From Erysipelothrix inopinata (lineage in GTDB: Bacteria; Bacillota_I; Bacilli_A; Erysipelotrichales; Erysipelotrichaceae), in assembly GCF_014396165.1 (NCBI RefSeq), contig NZ_CP060715.1, positions 1,590,001 to 1,622,000 of the forward strand: a stretch of 32,000 nucleotides of DNA, given 5' to 3'. Position 1 is the first letter of the stretch, and every line of letters starts with the position of its first letter. The notes under the pieces are model-generated. The model worked only from the letters and a program-made list of their open reading frames with translations. It was not told the DNA's origin and searched no databases. Made by a program: the position numbers and the translations under genes. This document shows, piece by piece, positions 1,502-14,996 of the stretch.

Positions 1502-1532
1502 AAAAAAAGAGAACTCTCCGGAGTTCTTTTTT
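1502..1532 (+). terminator. Rho-independent terminator of the LCP gene
   Basis: An A-run, the stem GAGAACTC..GAGTTCTT around the loop TCCG, then T6, starting 3 nt after the stop codon. The A-run/T-run symmetry would let it work in both directions. Confidence 0.8.
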
Positions 1533-1533
1533 A
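1526..1533. repeat. 8-bp target-site duplication (CTTTTTTA), left copy, of IS copy 1
   Basis: The same octamer abuts the other IS end at 3031-3038. An 8-bp TSD is the ISL3-family norm. Confidence 0.85.
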
Positions 1534-3030
1534 GGTTCTTTAAAATCTGGTGTTGGTGAGATATTTATCTCATCAACACTTTTTTATTTTAGATAATAAA
1601 AAAAGACATAGATAAGTAAATCCTCTATACTAAAGTCACCACAACCAGAGAAAGGGATCCATCATCTATGTCCAATCAAAATAATACACGAATTTTACTT
1701 AATATTAAAGACAAATCCATACATTTTTCAGATGAAAGTGTTCAACAAGAAGTCATAAAAGGAGTTTTATCTCACGTTGTATACGCTACACACTCTCCGG
1801 ATCATCCCGATTATTGCACAAAATGTGGTTGCATTAATCAAGATAACTCTATTATTAAAAACGGAACTAAGTCTGTCACAATTAAACTTCCAAAGTGTTC
1901 TAATTTCACAACCTACTTAAAACTTAAAAAACAACGCTATTACTGCAAGATGTGTTCGCATACATTTATCTCTCAAACAAACCTAGTTGATAAAAACTGC
2001 TCCATATCCAAGAACACCTATCATAAAGTACTTTTAGAAATTAAGACAAAACGTTCTGTTTGGGATATATCAAAGAGTAATAATATCTCTCACACTACCA
2101 TTAACTCTTGGATCACAAATATCAATTCAAAGTTTATTCAACCTCACAATTCCTTGCCCAAGAACCTATCCTTCGATGAGTTTAAGTCAGTTAAAGAGGT
2201 TAAGGGTAAGATGTCATTTATTTTTACAGACGCTGATACAGGTAAGATACTGGATATCCTTACGCATCGTCATATTGGTTTCCTCAAGTCTTATTTCTTT
2301 TCATTCCCTCTTGAAGTTAGAAAACAAGTAGAGACTGTTTCTATGGATATGTTTAAAGGATATATCGACCTCGTAAAGTCCTGTTTCCCTAACGCTAAAA
2401 TAATTACCGATAGATTCCATGTCGTTCAGCTTATTAATCGATCATTCAACTCTGTAAGGACGCAAGTTATGAAAGAGAATAAACAATACTACTCTAAATT
2501 GAAGAAGTATTGGAAACTCTTAATGATGACTCAAGATGATTTAGATGACAAAGAATATAAGCACTTTAAGTGTTTCCCTCATCTTATGACTGAACAACAG
2601 GTCGTCGATGAACTCTTGAGATCTTCAAAAGAACTCGAAGAGTGTTATTGGTTAATGCAGCGAATACGGCTCTCTATCAATAACAGGCAAATAGACTATT
2701 TCGAAGACTTAATATCCAAGAATTACAAACATCTACCCAAGACGATTCAAACCACAATCAATACATTCAACTATCATAAAACATCGATACTTAATGCACT
2801 TACTTATGAATACTCAAACGGAAAATTAGAAGGTACTAATAACTTAATAAAAGTAATTAAGAGAATTGCATTCGGGTATCGATCATTCACAAATTTTAGA
2901 GCGAGAGTTTTACTTATAAGCAACACAATGTTACCATTACAATTATAAAAAGCTCCACCACAAATTAATGTGATGGAGCCGTGACTCTAAATCAATATTG
3001 GAGTTCACCAACACTAGATTTTCAAGAGCC
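1534..3030 (+). mobile_element. ISL3-family insertion sequence, copy 1 (1497 bp)
   Basis: Imperfect terminal inverted repeats: IRL GGTTCTTTAAAATCTGGTGTTGGTGA and IRR (reverse complement) GGCTCTTGAAAATCTAGTGTTGGTGA. It carries a single transposase ORF and is flanked by an 8-bp TSD. The ends were defined by comparison with copy 2. Confidence 0.9.
1668..2948 (+). CDS. ISL3-family transposase (N-terminal zinc finger + DDE domain)
   Basis: 426-aa ORF with Cys pairs (CTKCGC...CKMCSH) typical of zf-ISL3, plus a C-terminal ...NGKLEGTNNLIKVIKRIAFGYRSFTNFRARVLL motif typical of ISL3 transposases. The protein is identical to that of 12460-13740. Confidence 0.9.
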   Translation: MSNQNNTRILLNIKDKSIHFSDESVQQEVIKGVLSHVVYATHSPDHPDYCTKCGCINQDNSIIKNGTKSVTIKLPKCSNFTTYLKLKKQRYYCKMCSHTFISQTNLVDKNCSISKNTYHKVLLEIKTKRSVWDISKSNNISHTTINSWITNINSKFIQPHNSLPKNLSFDEFKSVKEVKGKMSFIFTDADTGKILDILTHRHIGFLKSYFFSFPLEVRKQVETVSMDMFKGYIDLVKSCFPNAKIITDRFHVVQLINRSFNSVRTQVMKENKQYYSKLKKYWKLLMMTQDDLDDKEYKHFKCFPHLMTEQQVVDELLRSSKELEECYWLMQRIRLSINNRQIDYFEDLISKNYKHLPKTIQTTINTFNYHKTSILNALTYEYSNGKLEGTNNLIKVIKRIAFGYRSFTNFRARVLLISNTMLPLQL

Positions 3031-3845: not shown

Positions 3846-5233
3846 ATGAAAAAATATGAAAAAATGGGTTATTGGTCGATTGTATTATTAACGATTAATT
3901 CAATCATCGGGTCGGGAATTTTCATTTCTCCGACTGATGTTGTGAAACAAGCAGGGACGCTTACACCCATAGTCTATCTCTGCGCTGCCATCTTTGCATC
4001 TGTGCTTGCCATTTCATTTGCTTCTGCATCGAAGTATGTTGTGAAGGGTGGAGCTGCTTACGCATATACAAAAGCTGCCTTCGGAGAAAAGACTGGGTTC
4101 TATATTGGTATTACACGTTTTGTTTCAGCAAGTATAGCATGGGGTGTCATGGCCACAGCTGTTGTTAGAACGAGCTTGAATATTTTCAAAATTGAACCGA
4201 CTAACTCTGCAATTACAATTGGCTTTTTGATTCTTATGCTAATTCTGTTATTTATAAACATGTGGGGTACGAGAATCTTAACGGTTATCAGCAACCTTTC
4301 GACAATCGGGAAGCTTCTTGCACTCTCAATAACAATCATCGCTGGTATTGTGATCGTGCTTAAAACAGGTGAAAATCATTTCAGTGAAATAGCCACAGTA
4401 ACAGGTAGTGATGGATCCCTAGTTGTGCCCCCATGACAGTGTCTGTATTTGTTATGAGTATGCTCGCTGCATTTTATGCATTTACCGGATTTGAAAGTAT
4501 CGCGAGTGGTTCTCAAGATATGGAGAAGCCAGAAGTTAATTTACCTCGAGCAATTCCTGTGGGAATTATTATCATTGCTTTCTTCTATATTGCGATTGTT
4601 GGTATCGCGATGATGGTGAATCCAGTAGCGCTTGCAACATCAAAAGAAGTTGTTATACTGGCGGCTGTCTTTGATAATCCCTTTATTAAAGGATTAATCA
4701 TTATAGGAGCACTTGTTTCGATGTTTGGTATAAATGTAGCGGCCTCATTTCACACACCGCGAGTTTTAGAATCAATGGCAAAAGAAGGTCAATTATCTAA
4801 GTTTTTTGATAAACGAACGGGTCATGACTTTCCGCTTAGAGCCTTCTTACTTACTGCAATTGTTGCGATTGTAGTCCCAATATCCTTTGATTATAAAATG
4901 GGAAGTATTATGGTTATCAGTTCCATTTCGCGATTCGTTCAGTTTGTTATGGTTCCTCTAGCAGTTATTTACTTTTATAGAGGGAAATCAAAAGAACCAA
5001 TCTTAGATGCACATAAAAATAAAATTACCGATGTTGTTTTACCGATAATTTCAATAATACTGACAATTTTCTTATTAGTTAAGTTCGATTGGGCAGGTCA
5101 ATTTTCGGAAACTACCGCTTTAGGAACAACAGTTTTAAACTATAAAGCGATTACTGCAATGGTATTTGGATACATTGTAATTCCTATAAGTTTGTACTAT
5201 TTAAAAGAATTCTCACAAAAAAGAAACGCATAA
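3846..5233 (+). pseudogene. APC-superfamily amino-acid permease, split by a -1/+2 frameshift at a C5 tract
   Basis: ORFs 3846-4436 (196 aa) and 4433-5233 (266 aa) are the N- and C-halves of one ~462-aa, 12-TM APC permease (N-terminus INSIIGSGIFISP). The frames join if CCCCC at 4428-4432 were C6, reading ...SLVVPPMTVSVF... Confidence 0.75.
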
Positions 5234-5270
5234 AAAAGAGGTTGCTTCATAAATAAGCAACCTCTTTTAA
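5232..5270. terminator. Bidirectional rho-independent terminator between convergent genes
   Basis: AAAAAAGAGGTTGCTT-cataaata-AAGCAACCTCTTTT: an 11-bp GC-containing stem with an A-run on one side and a T-run on the other. Confidence 0.8.
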
Positions 5271-5283
5271 TGTTTTATAGCTA

Positions 5284-5508
5284 TTATACGTATTCGCCAG
5301 GTTTAACTGTGAACATGATTGCGCCTGCCATTGGATCTTTTTTGATTGCTGCTTTAATAAGCTTGCAAGCTTCTTCTTTATCTTCCATTTCAACTTCGAA
5401 ATAGAGCTTAATACCGTCTTTTTTAACGAAAGTTGCTTTTGGGTTATCAAGACCTTCAACGATAGTTTGAATTTGTTTTTGCATAATAGGGCTGTTTACA
5501 ATAATCAT
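5284..5508 (-). CDS. Small hypothetical protein (74 aa)
   Basis: An ATG at 5508 is preceded by AAAGAGGTG with 6-nt spacing. The ORF is compact, terminator-bounded, charged and non-membrane. I recognise no family. Confidence 0.55.
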   Translation of the reverse strand: MIIVNSPIMQKQIQTIVEGLDNPKATFVKKDGIKLYFEVEMEDKEEACKLIKAAIKKDPMAGAIMFTVKPGEYV

Positions 5509-5576
5509 AGGGTGCACCTCTTTCTACGAAAATATTCTAGCAAAATTCAGTTGGGAAAGCAACGAAATATACAATC

Positions 5577-5595
5577 TTTGAAATAATATTCCAAA
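5577..5595. promoter_or_regulatory. 19-bp palindrome TTTGAAATA-A-TATTCCAAA, candidate MurR/RpiR operator
   Basis: It matches the palindrome core at 10139-10157 at 17 of 19 positions. It lies in the divergent intergenic region upstream of the PTS-mupG operon. Confidence 0.45.
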
Positions 5596-5610
5596 AATAT
5601 GCTAATTTAC

Positions 5611-5639
5611 TTGAAATTTATTTCTTAATGGTCTATCAT
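5611..5639 (+). promoter_or_regulatory. Putative sigma-A promoter of the EIIC-mupG operon
   Basis: -35 TTGAAA (5611-5616), 17-nt spacer, -10 TATCAT (5634-5639). It overlaps a weaker GAAAT-TT-ATTTC half-palindrome at 5613-5624. Confidence 0.4.
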
Positions 5640-5679
5640 ATCCACTGTAAGCACTAACAGTGCAGAAAGGGAGTTTAAA

Positions 5680-6981
5680 ATGGAGAGTTTAACACGCTTT
5701 ATTGAAGAGAAAATTGCACCACCATTGATTAAGTTTTCTCAATTAAAATATGTCCAAGTAATGCAACGTACTGGACTTGGAATCATGAGTTTATTAGTTA
5801 TTGGTTCTGTATTTTTATTAGTTGCATCATTCCCAATTCCAGGTTGGACTGATTTCCTTGGAGATTTCCGATGGACAATCGCTGCAGCATCAGGCGTTGG
5901 TACAGGATTTATCGCATTATATACTGTTATTACTGCATCTTATGGATTAGTAGAATACTACAACAAGCAAAAAGGGGAGAACCACGATATTGTTCAACCT
6001 ATGATCTTAGCTGTAGCATCATTCTTATTACTTAACCCAGCACAAACTGTAAAAACAATCGTTGAAGGATCAGACAAACCTGGTTCATTCACAGGTGTTC
6101 CGACATTGTACTTAGGAGCAATCGGGGTATTTGCTGCCTTAATTATTGCTATTGTTACTGTTGAAATTTACCGTTTCGTAGTTAACAAGAAAATGGTTAT
6201 CAAAATGCCAGAAGGTGTTCCACCAATGGTATCTCAATCATTCGTTGCTTTAATTCCTAGCTTCTTTGTAATCTTATTCTGGTGGATTTTCGGACATGTT
6301 CTCCACATGAACATTCCAGAAATGATCGCAGGAATCTTTACACCACTTGTACAAGTTGGAGATAGCCCAATTGTTGTTATCGTTACAACATTCTTAAACC
6401 GTATTCTATGGGCAGTGGGTATCCACGGTTCAAATATCGTTAACTCTGTTGCTGGTACATTCTGGGGACAAATGGCTAACGAAAACTTGGCAGCATTCCA
6501 AGCTGGAATCCAACCACTACCATACAAATTTTCTTCAGTATGGATTGACAACTACATTTGGATTGGTTTATTCCCATTAGCATTGTCATTAATTACTTCC
6601 AAATCACCACGTTTGAAAAAACTTGGTCAATTATCAATTGCTGCATCACTATTTAACATTGGTGAGCCACTAATCTTTGGTCTTCCAATCATGCTAAACC
6701 CATTAATGATGATTCCATTCATCTTAAGTTATGTATTCTTAGCAATCGTTGCAATTGTATTAACAACAATCGGTTGGTTGCCAGTACCTGCATTAATGAT
6801 CTCATGGATCACACCAGCTCCAATCAAAACATTCTTAGCTACAAACGGTAGCTTTGCAGCTCTAGCATACGTATTACTTGCATGGGTATTTATGTACTTT
6901 GTATTCTACCCATTCGTTAAAGCAATCGAAAAGAACGATCTTATGGAAATTGCTGCTGCGGAAGCTGAAGAACAAAAATAA
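5680..6981 (+). CDS. PTS EIIC permease, lactose/cellobiose/chitobiose family (TC 4.A.3 type)
   Basis: 433-aa polytopic protein. The N-terminus (FIEEKIAPPLIKFSQLKYVQVMQRTGLG) and an internal GIHGSN motif are typical of type-3 EIIC. RBS AAAGGGAG. No EIIB or EIIA domain or gene lies nearby. Confidence 0.8.
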   Translation: MESLTRFIEEKIAPPLIKFSQLKYVQVMQRTGLGIMSLLVIGSVFLLVASFPIPGWTDFLGDFRWTIAAASGVGTGFIALYTVITASYGLVEYYNKQKGENHDIVQPMILAVASFLLLNPAQTVKTIVEGSDKPGSFTGVPTLYLGAIGVFAALIIAIVTVEIYRFVVNKKMVIKMPEGVPPMVSQSFVALIPSFFVILFWWIFGHVLHMNIPEMIAGIFTPLVQVGDSPIVVIVTTFLNRILWAVGIHGSNIVNSVAGTFWGQMANENLAAFQAGIQPLPYKFSSVWIDNYIWIGLFPLALSLITSKSPRLKKLGQLSIAASLFNIGEPLIFGLPIMLNPLMMIPFILSYVFLAIVAIVLTTIGWLPVPALMISWITPAPIKTFLATNGSFAALAYVLLAWVFMYFVFYPFVKAIEKNDLMEIAAAEAEEQK

Positions 6982-6984
6982 TCT

Positions 6985-8022
6985 ATGTTAGGAATCTCAA
7001 GCTATTTCCAAGATTTAGATTATGAGTACCTAAAGAGAGCATCTGAAATAGGAGCGAAGTATTTGTTTACTTCGCTTCATATTCCAGAAGAAGATCTATC
7101 ACAACTCGATAAACAATTACCTGAGTTCTTAAAAACAACAAAGGAATTAGGACTTGAGTTAGTTCCTGATATTTCTCCTGCAACCTTTGAAAAATTAGGG
7201 GTTGAAGCGAATGATTATAAGGCACTTAAAGAATTAGGATTTACAGCACTTCGTCTTGATTACGGTTTTGATGATTTTGAAATTGTTAAAACACTACTTC
7301 AAGATTTTGAATTGATGTTAAATGCTAGTGTTGTGAATGAACAATATATTCTCGATGCCAAAGCAGCCGGTGTCGATTTCACTCACATATCAGTGCTTCA
7401 TAATTTCTATCCAAAAACTGAAACTGGATTGTCTTTAGATTACTTTAAAAAGATTAACAAAGTATTTATTAAACATGATATTAAAATTATGGCATTTGTG
7501 CCTGGAGATCGTCTAAAACGATTCCCACTTTACGAAGGACTTCCAACAGTAGAACAACATCGTCAAAAGAATCCGTATGTTGCTGCTGTCGAATTAATTC
7601 ATGAATGTGGTATTGCTGATATTTTAATCGGTGACTCATTAGCACATGAATCAACATTGCAAAATATTGAAAGCTATATGAAAGATCGTACTATGACCAT
7701 TCCTGCTCATTTTAATGAAAATGCACAGGATATGTACGAAAAAGAACATACTGTTCGTAAAGATTTATCAGAAAACGTAATTCGTGTCCTATCACCTCGT
7801 GTACCAAACATTGATGTGATTGATAACTCATACCGTGTACGCGGTGCGATTACAATGGAAAACAAACTATCGGGTCGTTATAGTGGTGAAATTCAAATCA
7901 CTAAAAAAGACTTCCCAATGGATGCTCGTACCAATGTTTTAGGATTTATTCATCCTGATTACGTAGAATTGGTCGATTACATTGATCGTGATACGAAAAT
8001 TAAGTTTATTCCAATTAAATAA
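6985..8022 (+). CDS. mupG: DUF871 / MupG-family 6-phospho-N-acetylmuramidase
   Basis: 345 aa. The N-terminus MLGISSYF...GAKYLFTSLHIPEE and the overall length fit DUF871. It sits with murR, murQ and a PTS EIIC, as in characterised MurNAc-GlcNAc utilisation loci. Confidence 0.75.
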   Translation: MLGISSYFQDLDYEYLKRASEIGAKYLFTSLHIPEEDLSQLDKQLPEFLKTTKELGLELVPDISPATFEKLGVEANDYKALKELGFTALRLDYGFDDFEIVKTLLQDFELMLNASVVNEQYILDAKAAGVDFTHISVLHNFYPKTETGLSLDYFKKINKVFIKHDIKIMAFVPGDRLKRFPLYEGLPTVEQHRQKNPYVAAVELIHECGIADILIGDSLAHESTLQNIESYMKDRTMTIPAHFNENAQDMYEKEHTVRKDLSENVIRVLSPRVPNIDVIDNSYRVRGAITMENKLSGRYSGEIQITKKDFPMDARTNVLGFIHPDYVELVDYIDRDTKIKFIPIK

Positions 8023-8049
8023 AAGAGGGAAGCTATTCCTTCTTTTTTT
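8023..8049 (+). terminator. Weak or partial intrinsic terminator after mupG
   Basis: AGAGGGAAG-ctattc-CTTCTTTTT followed by a T-run. The stem relies on G-U pairs, so attenuation is more likely than full termination. Confidence 0.35.
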
Positions 8050-8087
8050 AAAATAAAGTATGATGTACTTGGATGTGAGGTATTAAA

Positions 8088-9260
8088 ATGTTAGAAAAAA
8101 TTGTTTCGGCGGTTCAAACAAACCGTTATTTGAATGCAATTAAGTCAGCCATTAATAAAGCTGCGTATATTAATATTGCATTAGCTTTTTTTATTTTTGT
8201 GTTTTATCAATTTGATCAGTACGGTACAGTTAGTGAAGAATTGCGTATTTTCTTCGCTTCAGTTTACCAATATTATTGTTTACTACTTGCGTTAATATTC
8301 GCATATGTAATTTCTTCTGAATTAACAGAAGAGGGTGTTACCGATCACTTCCGTTATGCAACAGTATTCTTAGTGGCACTTTTTGCACCTAACTATATTC
8401 CGAATGGATATGGAACCGTTTATCCATTTGTTGCTTGTATTTTAGCAGTATTCTTCCATGCTCTTTTGGAAGGATTAAATCAGTTTAAAGCTAAATCAAA
8501 GCGTTTGCCACAAGCAGTAGTGGATTACTGGAATCGTATATTCCCATTAGTAATTGTCTTTTCTGTAGCATTTGTGATGACATATGTCTTAAGAGATTGG
8601 ATGTATGTGATACCACATGCATTTATGTTTGTGACTGACTTACTTAATACACCTGTTGCGGTAATTGCAACAATTCTTCTTATCTGTTCTTTCTGGGTAC
8701 TTGGAATTCATGGTGTGGGTGTCATTGGAACATTATTAAGACCATTTTGGCTCTTTATGATGGTTGTTAATGGTTTCCAAGTTATTATTAAACAACCTGC
8801 GATCTATATTGGTTCAGAAACATTCTTCCAATGGATTGTATGGCTAGGAGGGTCAGGATGTACTCTTGGACTCTCACTTGCAATGCGATACTTCTCGAAG
8901 AGTAAACATATGAAAGAACTTGGAAAAGAAGCGATTGTGTCCAATTGGTTCAATATCAATGAAAATATTATCTTTGGTGTACCAATTGTTGATAACAAAC
9001 ACTTCAGACTTCCGTTCTTCCTTGCGCCAATCGCATGTGCAGCGCTTGGATACATTGCGTTTTATTCAGGATATGTTACGATACCTTCTATTGTAGCACC
9101 ATGGGTGTTACCTGTTCCAATCGGTATCTTTATATCGACACTTGGAGATATTCGTGCAGTCGGACTTTCATTCTTACTAATCTTAATCTCATTTTTAGTT
9201 TATTTCCCGTTCTTTAAGAAATATGATTTAGAACTATTCCAACAAGAAAATAACAACTAA
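8088..9260 (+). CDS. Divergent, short PTS-EIIC-like permease (lactose/cellobiose family fold)
   Basis: 390-aa polytopic ORF with EIIC type-3 hallmarks (NRYLNAIKSAI near the N-terminus, LGIHGVG motif). It is about 40 aa shorter than its neighbour at 5680 and clearly diverged from it. RBS GTGAGG. Confidence 0.65.
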   Translation: MLEKIVSAVQTNRYLNAIKSAINKAAYINIALAFFIFVFYQFDQYGTVSEELRIFFASVYQYYCLLLALIFAYVISSELTEEGVTDHFRYATVFLVALFAPNYIPNGYGTVYPFVACILAVFFHALLEGLNQFKAKSKRLPQAVVDYWNRIFPLVIVFSVAFVMTYVLRDWMYVIPHAFMFVTDLLNTPVAVIATILLICSFWVLGIHGVGVIGTLLRPFWLFMMVVNGFQVIIKQPAIYIGSETFFQWIVWLGGSGCTLGLSLAMRYFSKSKHMKELGKEAIVSNWFNINENIIFGVPIVDNKHFRLPFFLAPIACAALGYIAFYSGYVTIPSIVAPWVLPVPIGIFISTLGDIRAVGLSFLLILISFLVYFPFFKKYDLELFQQENNN

Positions 9261-9272
9261 GGAGGATGCGTT

Positions 9273-10109
9273 ATGAGCTGTATTTATCGTATTAAAAAAA
9301 ATATGCATACTTATACAGAAACAGAGAAGAAAATAGCTGAATACATCTTAAACAATAAAGATGAAGTTATTAATTTTTCTTCGCAAAGATTTGCCAAAGA
9401 AGTTGATTCTTCCGCAGCGGCTGTTGTTCGCTTTTCTAAGAAAATTGGATATAAAGGATTTACACATTTGAAGGTTGAACTTGCTAAAGATCAATACGAT
9501 GATGACGAGTCCATTGATAAGCTCATAAAAGAGGATGATTCTTCAGAGACAATGATTCGTAAAGCATTGTATTCAAATCATCGAACATTCACGAACACTT
9601 ATAAATTAATTAATGTACCGATTCTTGAAGAAGCAATCGATGCCTTAAAGAAAGCGCGTCGTGTTTATCTCTTTGGAGTGGGTGGATCAGGAGTGGTCTG
9701 TGAGGACTTGTATCAAAAATTAATTCGAATTGATGTAGAGGCTCGATACTTTACAGATGCTCACCTTGAGATATCAGCATTATCTTTCGCAGATGAACGT
9801 GATGTTGCGATTGCAATATCATACTCTGGTGTGACACGAGAAGTTGTTACTGCTCAAAAGATGGCGTCAGCTCAAGGTGTAAAAACGATTGCAATCACAC
9901 AAGTGGGGCGATCAGACTTGACGAAGTATTCCGATATGATCTTGAATATTCCTCAAGAAGAGTCTGAGCTTAGACTTGGATCTATCGCATCACGATTCTC
10001 AATGTTTGCAGTATCGGATTTACTGTATTTAGGAGTAGCGAAAGATAACATTGAACAGACGCGAGATAAACTCGTTAAAACACGTCAGTCTGTTCAATCT
10101 CTGAGATAA
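9273..10109 (+). CDS. murR: MurR/RpiR-family transcriptional regulator (HTH_6 + SIS domain)
   Basis: 278 aa. The N-terminal HTH (EKKIAEYILNN...SSQRFAKEVDSSAAAVVRFSKKIGYKGF) is followed by a SIS sugar-phosphate-binding domain (VYLFGVGGSG). Strong RBS AAGGAGG. Confidence 0.8.
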   Translation: MSCIYRIKKNMHTYTETEKKIAEYILNNKDEVINFSSQRFAKEVDSSAAAVVRFSKKIGYKGFTHLKVELAKDQYDDDESIDKLIKEDDSSETMIRKALYSNHRTFTNTYKLINVPILEEAIDALKKARRVYLFGVGGSGVVCEDLYQKLIRIDVEARYFTDAHLEISALSFADERDVAIAISYSGVTREVVTAQKMASAQGVKTIAITQVGRSDLTKYSDMILNIPQEESELRLGSIASRFSMFAVSDLLYLGVAKDNIEQTRDKLVKTRQSVQSLR

Positions 10110-10132
10110 CACAATAATTTCATAATTTAACT

Positions 10133-10163
10133 AAAAGATTTGAAATATTATTTCAAATCTTTT
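10133..10163. promoter_or_regulatory. Perfect 15+15 palindrome (AAAAGATTTGAAATA-T-TATTTCAAATCTTTT) overlapping the murQ promoter; candidate MurR operator
   Basis: The arms are exact reverse complements. The palindrome covers -35 TTGAAA (10140-10145) and abuts -10 TATAAT (10163-10168, 17-nt spacer). A related site lies at 5577-5595. Confidence 0.55.
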
Positions 10164-10194
10164 ATAATGTCATTATATAAAGTGAGGAAAGAGT

Positions 10195-11097
10195 ATGAAA
10201 GTAGATTTAAGTAAGATTGGAACTGAGCAACAAAATCAAAACACATTGAATATCGATAAGTTAAGCACACTTGAAATGGTGCAACTCATTAATCGTGAAG
10301 ACCAAGCGGTTATCGATGCTGTTGAGAAAGCAACACCTCAAATTGCAGCTGCTGTAGATGCTGCATACGAAGCTGTTTCTAATGGGGGACGTCTTGTCTA
10401 CATTGGAGCAGGTACATCAGGACGTTTAGGAGTTCTTGACGCATCAGAATGTCTCCCAACATTTGGAGTAGGTGAAGAAGCTGTTGTTGGACTTATTGCT
10501 GGTGGAGACACAGCATTACGTCACCCAGTTGAAGCTGCAGAAGACAGTAAAGAAGACGCAGTTAGAGATCTTAAAAATATTAATTTCAATGAAAATGATG
10601 TTGTATGTGCTATTGGTGCATCAGGCCGTACACCATACTGTATTGGTGGATTAGAATATGCTAAAGAAATTGGTGCAAAATCAATTTCACTTGCTTGTGT
10701 TGAAAACAGTGAGTTCTTCAACTATGCTGACTACCCAATTGAAGCAGTTGTAGGTCAAGAAGTTGTGACAGGTTCAACACGTATGAAATCAGGTTCAGCA
10801 ACAAAAATGGTTCTTAATATTTTATCAACAGGAATCATGATTAAATGGGGTAAAATTTACGGAAACCTTATGGTTGATGTTAAAGCAACAAATGAAAAAC
10901 TTGTTGAACGTGCACGTCAAATCATTATCAAAGCTACAGGTTGTTCATATGATCGTGCAGCTGAATTACAAAAACTAAGTAAAGATAATGTAAAACTAGC
11001 TATCGTTATGGAAAAAGCGAATCTTGATGCAGAAGCAGCAATGACACTTCTTGAAAACAATCAAGGACGTATCTCAGCAGCACTCGAAAATAAATAG
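10195..11097 (+). CDS. murQ: N-acetylmuramic acid 6-phosphate etherase
   Basis: 300 aa with the signature MurQ SIS motif GGRLVYIGAGTSGRLGVLDASECLPTFG and a C-terminal ...TGSTRMKSGSATKMVLN. RBS GTGAGGAAAGAG. Confidence 0.9.
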   Translation: MKVDLSKIGTEQQNQNTLNIDKLSTLEMVQLINREDQAVIDAVEKATPQIAAAVDAAYEAVSNGGRLVYIGAGTSGRLGVLDASECLPTFGVGEEAVVGLIAGGDTALRHPVEAAEDSKEDAVRDLKNINFNENDVVCAIGASGRTPYCIGGLEYAKEIGAKSISLACVENSEFFNYADYPIEAVVGQEVVTGSTRMKSGSATKMVLNILSTGIMIKWGKIYGNLMVDVKATNEKLVERARQIIIKATGCSYDRAAELQKLSKDNVKLAIVMEKANLDAEAAMTLLENNQGRISAALENK

Positions 11098-11107
11098 GAG
11101 AAAAAAC

Positions 11108-12259
11108 ATGCAAGATAAATATGCAGTAGGTCTTATGTCAGGTACCTCACTCGATGGGGTCGATGCAGTACTCGTTAAATTAAACGGATTTGGTACAGAT
11201 ACTCAATGCGAAGTAATTGAATTTACATCTCTCGATATTTCTGATGATTTAAGATCACGCATTTTAAAAGCAAGTCATCCAGAAACATCATCTGTAGATC
11301 TTATTTGTTCACTTAATTTTGAGTTGGGTGACATTTGGAGTCAAGCAGTTCAAAAAGTATTAACGAAAGCAGACTTCAAAGGCGAATTGGACTTTGTTGC
11401 ATCACATGGTCAAACTATTTATCACATGCCAAAGGCTGAAAAACCTTTCTATCGTTCAACACTACAAATTGGTGATCCATCACAGATTGCTTACGATCAC
11501 CATACTCAAGTAGTTTTTAACTTTAGACCCATGGATATGATTGCAGGAGGCGATGGTGCGCCACTTGTTCCTTACACAGAATTTATTCTTTACTCTCGTA
11601 AAGATGAATCCGTACTTCTTCAAAACATTGGTGGAATTGGTAATGTTACAATTATTCCTAAAAATTGTGGACTTGAGGATGTTACAGCATTTGATACCGG
11701 TCCAGGAAATATGATGATGAATGCAGCAACTGCACACTTCTATAATGAGCCTTATGATAAAGATGCTCAATACGGTTTTAAAGGACAGTTAATTCCTGAA
11801 CTATATGATGAATTAATCAATCATCCGTATCTAAAACTGTTGCCACCTAAGTCAACAGGAAGAGAGATGTTCGGAGAAGATGTTGTAGCAGACATTTGCA
11901 AGCGGTTTACGGAGCCTAATGACGTTATCTATACCTTGACTAAGTTTACTGCCTTTACGATTGCAGACGCTTATAAAAAGTATGTTTTTGACAAACTTGA
12001 TATTGATCAAATCATTTTAGGTGGTGGAGGAGCTTATAATCCACTCCTAATTAAGGAATTAAAGGAGATGTTACCAGATCATTCTGTTGTAACACAAGAA
12101 GATTTAGGATTCTCCAGTGATGCAAAAGAAGCAGTTGCATTCGCAATCCTAGGTAATGAAACACTCAATAATGTTGCAAGTAATGTTCCATCTGCAACAG
12201 GCAGTGATCGAAGAGTCATACTTGGGCAGATTTGTCCAAATCCAATTCAAGTCTTCTAA
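11108..12259 (+). CDS. anmK: Anhydro-N-acetylmuramic acid kinase
   Basis: 383 aa counted from the ATG at 11108 (AGGAG 8 nt upstream). The track start at 11051 overlaps murQ and adds a non-homologous extension. The N-terminus YAVGLMSGTSLDGVDAVL and the motifs GGIGN and DTGPGN fit the AnmK/UPF0075 family. Confidence 0.85.
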   Translation: MQDKYAVGLMSGTSLDGVDAVLVKLNGFGTDTQCEVIEFTSLDISDDLRSRILKASHPETSSVDLICSLNFELGDIWSQAVQKVLTKADFKGELDFVASHGQTIYHMPKAEKPFYRSTLQIGDPSQIAYDHHTQVVFNFRPMDMIAGGDGAPLVPYTEFILYSRKDESVLLQNIGGIGNVTIIPKNCGLEDVTAFDTGPGNMMMNAATAHFYNEPYDKDAQYGFKGQLIPELYDELINHPYLKLLPPKSTGREMFGEDVVADICKRFTEPNDVIYTLTKFTAFTIADAYKKYVFDKLDIDQIILGGGGAYNPLLIKELKEMLPDHSVVTQEDLGFSSDAKEAVAFAILGNETLNNVASNVPSATGSDRRVILGQICPNPIQVF

Positions 12260-12342
12260 TTGTTTGAAGTTAAAAATAGGTTGTTAATCTATAATTTGTG
12301 CCACAGGTAATCCCGTTGCTTATTCGCAATAAGATTTTTTGT

Positions 12343-12377
12343 GGTTCTTTAAAATTTGGTGTTGATGAGATATTTAT
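12343..12377 (+). repeat. Solo 35-bp ISL3 left-end (IRL) remnant from an older, slightly different IS copy
   Basis: GGTTCTTTAAAATTTGGTGTTGATGAGATATTTAT matches the first 35 nt of the IS at 1534 with 2 mismatches. It is cut off exactly where the IRR of copy 2 begins. Confidence 0.8.
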
Positions 12378-13874
12378 GGCTCTTGAAAATCTAGTGTTGG
12401 TGAACTCCAATATTGATTTAGAGTCACGGCTCCATCACATTAATTTGTGGTGGAGCTTTTTATAATTGTAATGGTAACATTGTGTTGCTTATAAGTAAAA
12501 CTCTCGCTCTAAAATTTGTGAATGATCGATACCCGAATGCAATTCTCTTAATTACTTTTATTAAGTTATTAGTACCTTCTAATTTTCCGTTTGAGTATTC
12601 ATAAGTAAGTGCATTAAGTATCGATGTTTTATGATAGTTGAATGTATTGATTGTGGTTTGAATCGTCTTGGGTAGATGTTTGTAATTCTTGGATATTAAG
12701 TCTTCGAAATAGTCTATTTGCCTGTTATTGATAGAGAGCCGTATTCGCTGCATTAACCAATAACACTCTTCGAGTTCTTTTGAAGATCTCAAGAGTTCAT
12801 CGACGACCTGTTGTTCAGTCATAAGATGAGGGAAACACTTAAAGTGCTTATATTCTTTGTCATCTAAATCATCTTGAGTCATCATTAAGAGTTTCCAATA
12901 CTTCTTCAATTTAGAGTAGTATTGTTTATTCTCTTTCATAACTTGCGTCCTTACAGAGTTGAATGATCGATTAATAAGCTGAACGACATGGAATCTATCG
13001 GTAATTATTTTAGCGTTAGGGAAACAGGACTTTACGAGGTCGATATATCCTTTAAACATATCCATAGAAACAGTCTCTACTTGTTTTCTAACTTCAAGAG
13101 GGAATGAAAAGAAATAAGACTTGAGGAAACCAATATGACGATGCGTAAGGATATCCAGTATCTTACCTGTATCAGCGTCTGTAAAAATAAATGACATCTT
13201 ACCCTTAACCTCTTTAACTGACTTAAACTCATCGAAGGATAGGTTCTTGGGCAAGGAATTGTGAGGTTGAATAAACTTTGAATTGATATTTGTGATCCAA
13301 GAGTTAATGGTAGTGTGAGAGATATTATTACTCTTTGATATATCCCAAACAGAACGTTTTGTCTTAATTTCTAAAAGTACTTTATGATAGGTGTTCTTGG
13401 ATATGGAGCAGTTTTTATCAACTAGGTTTGTTTGAGAGATAAATGTATGCGAACACATCTTGCAGTAATAGCGTTGTTTTTTAAGTTTTAAGTAGGTTGT
13501 GAAATTAGAACACTTTGGAAGTTTAATTGTGACAGACTTAGTTCCGTTTTTAATAATAGAGTTATCTTGATTAATGCAACCACATTTTGTGCAATAATCG
13601 GGATGATCCGGAGAGTGTGTAGCGTATACAACGTGAGATAAAACTCCTTTTATGACTTCTTGTTGAACACTTTCATCTGAAAAATGTATGGATTTGTCTT
13701 TAATATTAAGTAAAATTCGTGTATTATTTTGATTGGACATAGATGATGGATCCCTTTCTCTGGTTGTGGTGACTTTAGTATAGAGGATTTACTTATCTAT
13801 GTCTTTTTTTATTATCTAAAATAAAAAAGTGTTGATGAGATAAATATCTCACCAACACCAGATTTTAAAGAACC
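12378..13874 (-). mobile_element. ISL3-family insertion sequence, copy 2 (1497 bp, inverted relative to copy 1)
   Basis: Same length and ends as copy 1. The non-coding ends and every stretch I compared by eye are identical. The flanking octamers differ (ATATTTAT vs GAAATAAT), so there is no TSD. Confidence 0.9.
12460..13740 (-). CDS. ISL3-family transposase (identical to 1668-2948)
   Basis: The 426-aa translation is identical residue for residue to that of copy 1. Confidence 0.9.
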   Translation of the reverse strand: MSNQNNTRILLNIKDKSIHFSDESVQQEVIKGVLSHVVYATHSPDHPDYCTKCGCINQDNSIIKNGTKSVTIKLPKCSNFTTYLKLKKQRYYCKMCSHTFISQTNLVDKNCSISKNTYHKVLLEIKTKRSVWDISKSNNISHTTINSWITNINSKFIQPHNSLPKNLSFDEFKSVKEVKGKMSFIFTDADTGKILDILTHRHIGFLKSYFFSFPLEVRKQVETVSMDMFKGYIDLVKSCFPNAKIITDRFHVVQLINRSFNSVRTQVMKENKQYYSKLKKYWKLLMMTQDDLDDKEYKHFKCFPHLMTEQQVVDELLRSSKELEECYWLMQRIRLSINNRQIDYFEDLISKNYKHLPKTIQTTINTFNYHKTSILNALTYEYSNGKLEGTNNLIKVIKRIAFGYRSFTNFRARVLLISNTMLPLQL

Positions 13875-14996
13875 GAAATAATCAATTCAACTATGTTATT
13901 TACTGATTGTATTTCTGAATTGGAAGATGTACATTTTTTTGTTGTTGCAGTTCCAACTCCAATAAACGAGGATAAAACCCCAAACTTAGATTTAGTAATT
14001 TCTGCTACCGAAATTGTAGCACCATACCTAAAAAGAAACTCTGTAGTAGTGTATGAATCTACAGTATATCCAGGAGTGACAGAGGATATATGTCTTCCTA
14101 TTCTCAAACAAAACTCTAATTTGAATTATCCTAACGATTTTTCTATTGGGTATTCTCCTGAAAGAATCAATCCTGGTGATAAATTACATAGATTGGAAAA
14201 TATTGTTAAAGTTGTAAGTGCAGATAATTCTGAAAGCTTGAATTTAGTATCCGAAATATATGGAGAAATTATAGAAGCTGGAATTTATAAGGCAACATCA
14301 ATCAAAGTTGCTGAAGCTGCAAAAGTAATTGAAAATAGTCAAAGGGATATTAATATTGCTTTTGTAAATGAGTTAGCTATGATTTTCGATAAATTAAATA
14401 TTAATACTAGTGAAGTGCTAGAAGCGGCATCTACAAAATGGAATTTCCTGAATTTCACTCCGGGTCTCGTCGGAGGGCACTGCATTGGTGTGGATCCCTA
14501 CTACTTAACTTACAGAGCTAATCAAGTAGGTTATGTATCTCAAATAATTACTGCAGGTAGGACAGTAAATGATGACATGGGTAAATATATAGCACAAAAG
14601 AGCATTAAGATGATGATTAATGACAAAAAATCTCTTTATGATTCCAAGGTTGCAATTTTGGGATTCACTTTTAAAGAGAACTGTGCAGATATCCGAAATA
14701 CCAGAGTAATTGATATTGTTAAGGAACTTAATGATTTTGGAGTAAATGTTGATATATTTGATCCGCTTGCAGATGCAGATGAAGTAGCGACACATTATGG
14801 GATCAAAGTTGTTAATAACCTTCCGTTTGCGGAAAGTATTAGCTATGATGTTGTAATCCTTGCGGTAAATCACTCTGAATATGTAGAAATGTCTTCTGAA
14901 AAATATGGCAAGCTTCTCAAAGATGATGCTATTGTTGTTGATGTTAAAAATGTGAAAAATGAATTGAGTAAATCATATAAATACTGGAGCTTATAA
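13875..14996 (+). pseudogene. 5'-truncated TviB/WbpO-family UDP-N-acetylhexosamine 6-dehydrogenase (about 60 N-terminal residues with the Rossmann GxGxxG missing)
   Basis: The frame is open from the IS boundary (EIINSTMLFTDCISELEDVHFFVVAVPTPINEDKTP...VVVYESTVYPGVTED...GYSPERINPGD). This aligns from about residue 60 of TviB-type enzymes. The NAD-binding N-terminus is absent, and the first ATG (13893) has no SD sequence. Confidence 0.8.

Follow-up and report, generated by a model that had tools for sequence, protein, structure and literature searches.

The stretch analysed here, referred to as the window, comprises 32,000 nucleotides (positions 1590001-1622000) of the single-contig 2.2 Mb genome of Erysipelothrix inopinata (35.6% GC). 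Positions 5680-12259 of the window are filled by six genes on the same strand that are predicted to serve the salvage of peptidoglycan amino sugars; they encode two EIIC permeases of the sugar phosphotransferase system (PTS), a GH170 glycosidase, a MurR-type regulator, and two enzymes acting on N-acetylmuramic acid (MurNAc) derivatives:

5680-6981, + strand: EIIC1, an orphan PTS EIIC of the lactose/cellobiose (Lac) family (433 aa; PF02378 144 bits; TIGR00410 270.5 bits, cut-off 236)
6985-8022, + strand: GH170/MupG-family 6-phospho-glycosidase (345 aa; PF19200 215 bits, PF05913 80 bits)
8088-9260, + strand: EIIC2, a compact, divergent Lac-family EIIC (390 aa; PF02378 72 bits)
9273-10109, + strand: MurR/RpiR-family regulator (HTH_6 and SIS domains)
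10195-11097, + strand: MurQ, MurNAc-6-phosphate (MurNAc-6P) etherase (TIGR00274 410 bits, cut-off 302)
11109-12259, + strand: AnmK, anhydro-MurNAc kinase (NF007142 517.5 bits, cut-off 435; PF03702 322.6 bits)

These six family assignments had been made in a sequence-only reading of the DNA, and Pfam and NCBIfam searches bore them out, that of the regulator by its domain architecture. The same reading held that the cluster lacks EIIA, EIIB and a MurP-type EIIBC, and domain and model searches agreed, detecting neither an EIIA or EIIB gene or domain nor a glucose-family EIIBC/MurP within 5680-12259. The GH170 gene starts 3 nucleotides past the stop codon of EIIC1, and its product belongs to the family by both the MupG_N and the MupG_C domain (215 and 80 bits, above cut-off). 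The regulator scores 187 and 170 bits with the best MurR/RpiR models, against cut-offs of 378 and 355; its gene adjoins murQ-anmK in five Erysipelothrix genomes. Both murQ (one tblastn match) and anmK are single-copy in the genome. The likely start of anmK is the ATG at 11109, with an AGGAG site 7 nucleotides before it, rather than the TTG at 11051 of the listed open reading frame (ORF).

Classification of the two permeases, which the sequence-only reading had proposed as a check, places EIIC1 in the Lac family (TC 4.A.3) by PF02378 and TIGR00410, both above cut-off, while EIIC2 passes PF02378 only (TIGR00410 152.8 bits, cut-off 236) and has its matches to Lac-family models confined to the C-terminal 250 or so residues. 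Neither reaches the equivalog cut-offs for cellobiose, chitobiose or lactose permeases: EIIC1 scores 270 bits against 434 with TIGR00359, 189 against 503 with NF007157, 127 against 760 with NF007634 and 150 against 614 with TIGR00394, and EIIC2 scores lower than EIIC1 on all four. EIIC1 aligns over its full length with Bacillus cereus ChbC (PDB 3QNQ, residues 2-432, 219 bits). EIIC2 can be aligned with ChbC by sequence only from about residue 109, the first 108 or so residues being without alignment; an AlphaFold2 model of EIIC2, built on 12 orthologues (pLDDT 89.9), matches 3QNQ across the full length with a TM-score of 0.80 (Foldseek), so that EIIC2 is predicted to have a complete ChbC-like transporter fold. 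Equivalents of ChbC His250 and Glu334 are kept in both permeases, in GIHG and NI(N/G)E motifs (NINE in EIIC2). Solved EIIC structures have this histidine and glutamate as their two conserved substrate ligands (PMC11393339), and the pair in EIIC2 is compatible with phosphorylation-coupled transport, of which it is no proof.

The evidence that ties these permeases to MurNAc comes chiefly from other genomes. Relatives of the window GH170 were compared at 46 loci from species-representative genomes, and in 29 of these, distributed over four bacterial families, murQ lies within 10 kb of the GH170 orthologue. The transporter next to GH170 falls into one of four classes: an EIIC1 orthologue with 54-80% identity (in Erysipelothrix, Bulleidia, Clostridium paraputrificum, Enterococcus canis, Enterococcus diestrammenae, Tetragenococcus, Vagococcus and Lacticaseibacillus), a MurP-like EIIBC (in Lactobacillus, Tetragenococcus, Enterococcaceae and two Erysipelothrix metagenome-assembled genomes, MAGs), an EIIC1 orthologue and a MurP-like EIIBC together (locus L061; L and G numbers denote loci and genomes of this comparison), or a more distant Lac EIIC with an adjoining EIIB gene (L054, L062, L075). 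In a tree of GH170 proteins the window type is a distinct clade of 44 rows (stem branch 3.59, support 100), inside which EIIC1-linked and MurP-like-linked members are interleaved; members of the clade sit in murR-murQ-murP-like clusters. This interleaving is the pattern expected for transporter replacement on the same substrate. Together with the adjacency of EIIC1 and GH170 genes, it is what one would typically see where the enzyme stays and its transporter is exchanged for one of another family, and it provides the main support for a Lac-family EIIC as importer.

In the permease tree, the EIIC1 orthologues form a clade of 25 rows with 100% support, most members of which adjoin a window-type GH170, and a sister clade of five rows is also found near window-type GH170 genes; the EIIC2 orthologues form a separate clade of 18 rows. 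Among 151 genomes sampled evenly across the order Erysipelotrichales, eight have the EIIC1 type, directly beside a window-type GH170 in every case, and all eight encode AnmK. Related clusters also hold a GH3 (NagZ-like) gene, a gene for a beta-lactamase-fold protein and a BadF-type sugar kinase gene, and some include Lac-type EIIA and EIIB. The beta-lactamase fold is that of Bacillus subtilis AmiE. Against the solved DUF871 structures, the window GH170 scores 162 bits with 2P0O (Enterococcus faecalis) and 136 bits with 1X7F (B. cereus), and the GH170 paralogues at 1.254 Mb and 0.887 Mb of the genome are close to 1X7F (about 375-380 bits).

A second line of evidence is a palindrome that appears in the promoter regions of both halves of the cluster:

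5577-5595, unstranded: candidate MurR operator upstream of EIIC1 (17/19 match to the murQ site)
5611-5639, + strand: promoter-like site for the EIIC1-GH170-EIIC2-murR operon (TTGAAA-17-TATCAT, 10/12, a consensus match only)
10132-10164, unstranded: candidate MurR operator at the murQ promoter (perfect 16+1+16 palindrome over the -35 box)
10140-10168: murQ promoter-like site (TTGAAA-17-TATAAT, 11/12)

The murQ and EIIC1 promoters are, in that order, the best two sigma-70-like matches in 5200-12500. With at most two mismatches allowed, the 19-bp core of the palindrome occurs at just two places in the 2.2 Mb genome, positions 5577 and 10139 of the window, and is perfect only at murQ; even at three mismatches, shuffled genomes yield 0-6 matches. 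Three-mismatch matches before an orphan EIIB gene (genome position 1464144) and before the EIIC gene at 1.252 Mb (1252356) were set aside as within chance expectation. Related sites precede both EIIC1 and murQ in Erysipelothrix tonsillarum and E. urinaevulpis, the latter with four mismatches at each site though its EIIC1 and murQ blocks are unlinked; operator-like sites upstream of EIIC1 or murQ are also found in C. paraputrificum, Bulleidia and Enterococcus canis, and sites resembling the palindrome precede EIIC1 at loci L041, L065, L052, L056 and L050. The loose half-site TTGAAA-N5-TTTCAA is not enriched genome-wide (three matches, against 0-4 in simulated genomes), so the proposal of a single regulon for both promoters rests on the strict 19-bp match and its conservation across species, binding by the regulator being predicted.

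The coupling proteins that the cluster lacks are encoded elsewhere. The genome contains about 15 Lac-type EIICs, two EIIA(Lac) genes (at 1299458 and 680859; genome coordinates) and at least five EIIB(Lac) genes (at 1300444, 1464182, 681635, 82741 and 670922), and one EIIA/EIIB pair is free-standing, with no EIIC adjoining. The orphan EIIA and EIIB(Lac) partners for which the sequence-only reading had suggested a search are therefore to be found outside the cluster, and the absence of EIIA and EIIB, correct for the cluster, is not unusual. With about 15 Lac-type EIICs but two EIIA genes, most EIICs of this genome must be orphans that draw on common coupling proteins, and the salvage cluster is no oddity in this respect.

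With a probability of roughly 0.6, the cluster is a MurR-controlled PTS locus for peptidoglycan amino sugars in which EIICs of the Lac/cellobiose family take the role of MurP; the substrate of each permease we infer from sequence. Lac-family PTS systems phosphorylate the non-reducing sugar of their substrates. EIIC1, served by shared EIIA and EIIB(Lac) proteins, would take up a beta-1,4-linked MurNAc-containing disaccharide, most likely MurNAc linked to N-acetylglucosamine (MurNAc-GlcNAc), with phosphorylation at C6 of the non-reducing sugar, a substrate that fits this mode of phosphorylation and the alternation of EIIC1 with MurP in the GH170 clade. The adjoining GH170 would split the phospho-disaccharide into MurNAc-6P and GlcNAc, and MurQ would convert MurNAc-6P to GlcNAc-6P and D-lactate. 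AnmK would channel 1,6-anhydro-MurNAc (anhMurNAc) into the MurQ step, the anhydro sugar most likely entering via EIIC2, either as GlcNAc-anhMurNAc phosphorylated on GlcNAc or as free, unphosphorylated anhMurNAc. MurR would repress both operons via the palindrome until an intermediate of the pathway builds up.

A Lac-family EIIC feeding GH170 and MurQ was already the proposal of the sequence-only reading, and it is strengthened by the EIIC1 clade beside GH170, the interleaved GH170 tree and the shared palindrome. Some of its arguments need amendment. The pairing of a Lac EIIC with GH170 is not by itself a sign of MurNAc, being known for diacetylchitobiose (PMC12791066); the linkage to murQ is. 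Import of MurNAc-GlcNAc alone leaves the supply of substrate to AnmK unexplained, which a route through EIIC2, or one for GlcNAc-anhMurNAc, fits better; EIIC2, which occurs only where AnmK is also encoded, is the best candidate to fill this gap and the better candidate for bringing in anhMurNAc substrates.

The distribution of AnmK points in the same direction. The enzyme is best known from Gram-negative cell-wall recycling, as the sequence-only reading noted, but it is not rare in this order, where 34 of the 151 genomes (19 of 68 genera) encode AnmK, mostly beside Lac-type EIICs. For 23 of the 34 anmK genes, a Lac EIIC gene is located no more than 10 kb away that is of either the EIIC2 kind or the kind encoded at 1.252 Mb of the E. 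inopinata genome (1252k type), as identified by a match to the EIIC2 profile. Fourteen AnmK neighbourhoods were compared. Ten share murR, anmK, murQ, a small protein of no recognised function, a 1252k-type EIIC, a GH170 of the 1X7F type and a BadF-type kinase, at times with EIIB and at times with GH1; Lac-type EIIA and EIIB are both present in three of the ten and EIIB only in a fourth. Among the others, one has GH1 instead of GH170, one is of the EIIC1/EIIC2 type, and in two AnmK stands alone. The protein of about 100-125 aa encoded before 1252k-type EIICs matched no Pfam family. A GH1 phospho-beta-glycosidase gene is found within the murQ/anmK/Lac-EIIC clusters L052, L101, L105 and L106, and replaces GH170 in L105.

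In E. inopinata this second module lies apart from the window, at 1252467-1257119 of the genome (L025), and consists of genes for an EIIC, a 124-aa protein of no recognised function, a 1X7F-type GH170, a BadF-type kinase and a HAD hydrolase; elsewhere in the order, most of the genomes that encode AnmK have this module joined to murR-anmK-murQ. Lacticaseibacillus jixianensis has two murQ genes, of which one is clustered with anmK and with genes for a Lac EIIC, a 1X7F-type GH170 and a BadF kinase (L116), and the other is near a pair of EIIC1 and window-type GH170 (L068). A full-length match to the EIIC2 profile was dropped as the marker of EIIC2 after two such proteins (G108, G121) proved to be of the 1252k type. 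Defined instead by a score of at least 323 bits on that profile, the EIIC2 type proper, a fast-evolving and shorter offshoot, occurs in eight of the 151 genomes, all eight with AnmK and window-type GH170. A 1X7F-type GH170 follows EIIC2 in C. paraputrificum and Bulleidia, and no GH170 follows it in Erysipelothrix; in group g51 (G102, G104, G120) EIIC2 directly adjoins anmK, and in the one neighbourhood of this group that was compared (L111, of G120) a kinase gene follows EIIC2, with no GH170.

These patterns lead to a broader proposal, which is held tentatively and at somewhat less than even odds: that permeases of the Lac/cellobiose family are a major unrecognised import route for peptidoglycan disaccharides in Firmicutes, with two specialised modules, one of EIIC1 and window-type GH170, the other of an EIIC2 or 1252k-type EIIC with 1X7F-type GH170, BadF kinase and AnmK. 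If this is true, the second module would be the first described Gram-positive system for uptake of anhMurNAc products of lytic transglycosylases that requires neither AmpG nor NagZ. As to enzymes that might supply or process such sugars, the E. inopinata genome encodes MltG and two GH73 glucosaminidases, and neither an SLT-family enzyme nor GH3/NagZ was found in it. MltG may be an internal source of anhydro ends. With no NagZ/GH3 found, a phospho-glycosidase route would be needed for GlcNAc-(anh)MurNAc.

Several observations weigh against assigning MurNAc disaccharides to the Lac-family permeases of the window. The sequence-only reading found no MurP, which is true of the cluster but cannot safely be extended to the genome. 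Two EIIBCs of the sucrose/MurP subfamily are encoded, at 843311-844759 and 1547568-1548995; the best model for the former is MurP (NF007152, 321.6 bits against a cut-off of 516, which no EIIBC in the genome reaches), and its gene, although unlinked to murQ, encodes a protein 67% identical to EIIBCs located between murQ and GH170 in other Erysipelothrix MAGs. This candidate MurP could carry MurNAc or MurNAc-GlcNAc. Orthology of the window GH170 to Staphylococcus aureus MupG is unproven; S. aureus MupG was not found among the 120 best homologues of the window GH170, among ten named representatives taken from an exhaustive search, or among the 120 best homologues of a Bacillales relative. The EIIC1-GH170-EIIC2 triad is located away from murR-murQ-anmK in five Erysipelothrix genomes, and in E. 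aquatica the palindrome was detected only at murQ. GH170 proteins of the 1X7F type are also linked to murQ or anmK in many genomes; either GH170 clade may be the 6-phospho-muramidase acting on MurNAc-6P-GlcNAc, the other then being the 6-phospho-N-acetylglucosaminidase acting on GlcNAc-6P-(anh)MurNAc. Finally, in Lacticaseibacillus paracasei the GH170 enzyme ChbE and a cellobiose-type PTS act on diacetylchitobiose (PMC12791066), so that GH170 with a Lac EIIC is not specific for MurNAc.

The last observation suggests that EIIC1 and GH170 might be a chitobiose-type pair like ChbC-ChbE, handling GlcNAc-GlcNAc or another non-muramyl beta-linked amino-sugar disaccharide and merely neighbouring murR-murQ-anmK. 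The unlinked triads of the five Erysipelothrix species speak for such a pair, and the closest paralogue of EIIC1 (56% identity) is paired with a PIG-L-family de-N-acetylase, suggesting that the subfamily transports N-acetyl-amino-sugar glycosides in general. It is nevertheless quite unlikely, considering that murQ is within 10 kb of a window-type GH170 in 29 of 46 loci of four families, that MurP-like EIIBCs serve the same GH170 clade in lactobacilli and enterococci, that the EIIC1 and murQ promoters have the palindrome in common, and that three other GH170 paralogues, of 1X7F or other types, could serve chitobiose. Alternatively, the roles of the two sugars may be reversed: the Lac-type permeases would import GlcNAc-beta-1,4-MurNAc and GlcNAc-beta-1,4-anhMurNAc, which muramidases and lytic transglycosylases release, and would phosphorylate GlcNAc at C6; GH170 would be a 6-phospho-N-acetylglucosaminidase releasing GlcNAc-6P and MurNAc or anhMurNAc; and AnmK, or a BadF-type kinase encoded elsewhere, would phosphorylate the released sugar for MurQ. 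Such a pathway would make AnmK obligatory and explain why anmK so often clusters with Lac EIIC, GH170 and BadF kinase genes; ChbE demonstrates that glycosides of GlcNAc-6P can be substrates of a GH170 enzyme, the search of the genome found no NagZ, and it is the non-reducing sugar that Lac-family systems phosphorylate. It is judged unlikely for the window cluster because the window-type GH170 clade alternates with MurP-like EIIBCs, S. aureus MurP delivering MurNAc-6P-GlcNAc (PMC6262408), and because in the module that elsewhere has the strongest link to anmK, the GH170 is of the 1X7F type and not of the window type.

A further alternative concerns EIIC2, which might be a decaying or non-functional duplicate, with all uptake via EIIC1 or the MurP-like EIIBC. 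The protein has about 45 residues fewer than EIIC1, does not reach the cut-off of the Lac-family model, cannot be aligned with ChbC by sequence over its first 108 or so residues, and evolves fast (45-52% identity within the genus, compared with 77-80% for EIIC1). Yet more than 10 species keep its reading frame intact, 40 alignment columns are invariant and include the substrate-ligand motifs, its confident structural model matches ChbC over the full length, and AnmK accompanies it in 8/8 genomes with a high-scoring EIIC2, the two genes being adjacent in g51. On the predicted fold, the invariant motifs and this conservation, the reading of EIIC2 as a pseudogene was rejected, and decay is considered very improbable. 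Salvage of MurNAc disaccharides through EIIC1, with EIIC2 as the candidate port for anhydro sugars, is preferred to these alternatives.

Most of what is known of Gram-positive cell-wall recycling comes from S. aureus and B. subtilis, with MurP as the transporter, and to our knowledge the use of anhydro-muropeptides by Gram-positive bacteria has not been worked out. A literature search found no paper linking a Lac-family EIIC to MurNAc-containing disaccharides or to AnmK, in accordance with the statement of the sequence-only reading that the family had not yet been linked to muropeptide uptake, and a 2026 review of bacterial glycoside transporters makes no mention of MurNAc. The succession of PTS, 6-phospho-glycosidase and MurQ is already known and its Lac-family variant is widespread, and no new principle is involved. 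What the locus and its relatives in Erysipelotrichales, Clostridium, Enterococcaceae and Lactobacillaceae point to is a different transporter family for the job of MurP, and a defined place for AnmK in Firmicutes. If the assignment is correct, it supplies a substrate class for some of the orphan cellobiose-type EIICs of gut- and animal-associated Firmicutes, and it bears on how these bacteria scavenge cell-wall fragments, which are immune signals, from their environment.

Some neighbouring features and paralogous loci deserve mention. Two 1504-bp copies of ISL3 (1527-3030 and 12378-13881), 100% identical and inverted, flank a block of 9.3 kb that contains, besides the entire salvage cluster, a gene for a peptidase C26 and the split gene of an amino-acid permease; the bracketed block could be invertible or mobilisable. 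A near-identical MAG contig (L040) stops within murR, 377 bp before the edge of the ISL3 copy, which may be an assembly break. The APC-family amino-acid permease is divided into two overlapping ORFs, 3846-4436 (196 aa) and 4433-5233 (266 aa), the former corresponding to the N-terminal half of the family models and the latter to the C-terminal half, so that a frameshift has probably made it a pseudogene. An ORF of 74 aa that has a good ribosome-binding site (5284-5508, minus strand) is divergent from the EIIC1 promoter region and shares with EIIC1 the intergenic region that contains the palindrome; its product matched no Pfam family.

The genome as a whole has four GH170 paralogues, three of which adjoin orphan Lac-type EIICs. 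The gene for the closest paralogue of EIIC1, a protein that falls within the EIIC1 clade, and its partner gene for the PIG-L de-N-acetylase (L039, 2136554-2139503) are divergent from genes for an RpiR regulator and a GNAT protein and lie a few kb from a GH73 glucosaminidase gene and murF-ddl-alr-like genes; L039 may represent a second system for amino-sugar disaccharides, one that involves deacetylation. At the locus of the MurP-like EIIBC (L086, 840499-844759), the EIIBC gene is divergent from genes for an 806-aa LPXTG-anchored surface protein with a beta-lactamase fold and a BglG-type antiterminator. The LPXTG protein could be a surface enzyme that processes muramoyl-peptides and is paired with the MurP-type transporter.

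The cluster can be compared with four known systems. Recycling of anhydromuropeptides in Escherichia coli involves AmpG, NagZ, AmpD, AnmK, MurQ, MurP and MurR. E. inopinata resembles it in the combination of AnmK and MurQ, which leads from anhMurNAc to GlcNAc-6P, and in a candidate MurR-type repressor, and differs in that no NagZ/GH3 was found in the genome, uptake being proposed to occur via PTS EIICs and cleavage via a phospho-glycosidase. In comparison with B. cereus ChbC (3QNQ), EIIC1 is alike over its full length and EIIC2 is alike by predicted fold, about 50 residues shorter and diverged in its N-terminal domain. The chb cluster of L. paracasei described in 2026, which comprises the ChbABC PTS, ChbD and ChbE and is dedicated to diacetylchitobiose (PMC12791066), similarly pairs a cellobiose-type EIIC with a GH170 phospho-glycosidase; unlike the window cluster, it includes EIIA and EIIB genes of its own and encodes a DUF3284 protein, and it has neither murQ nor anmK. 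A further parallel is the mupG-murQ-murP-murR operon of S. aureus (Kluj et al. 2018, PMC6262408), which likewise unites a GH170/DUF871 phospho-glycosidase, MurQ and an RpiR/MurR-type regulator in one locus, and whose logic of disaccharide import by a PTS followed by a 6-phospho-glycosidase and an etherase is predicted from the genes here. Three of the four components of that operon are present in E. inopinata, where two Lac-family EIICs without an EIIB domain replace the glucose-family EIIBC MurP and AnmK has been added.

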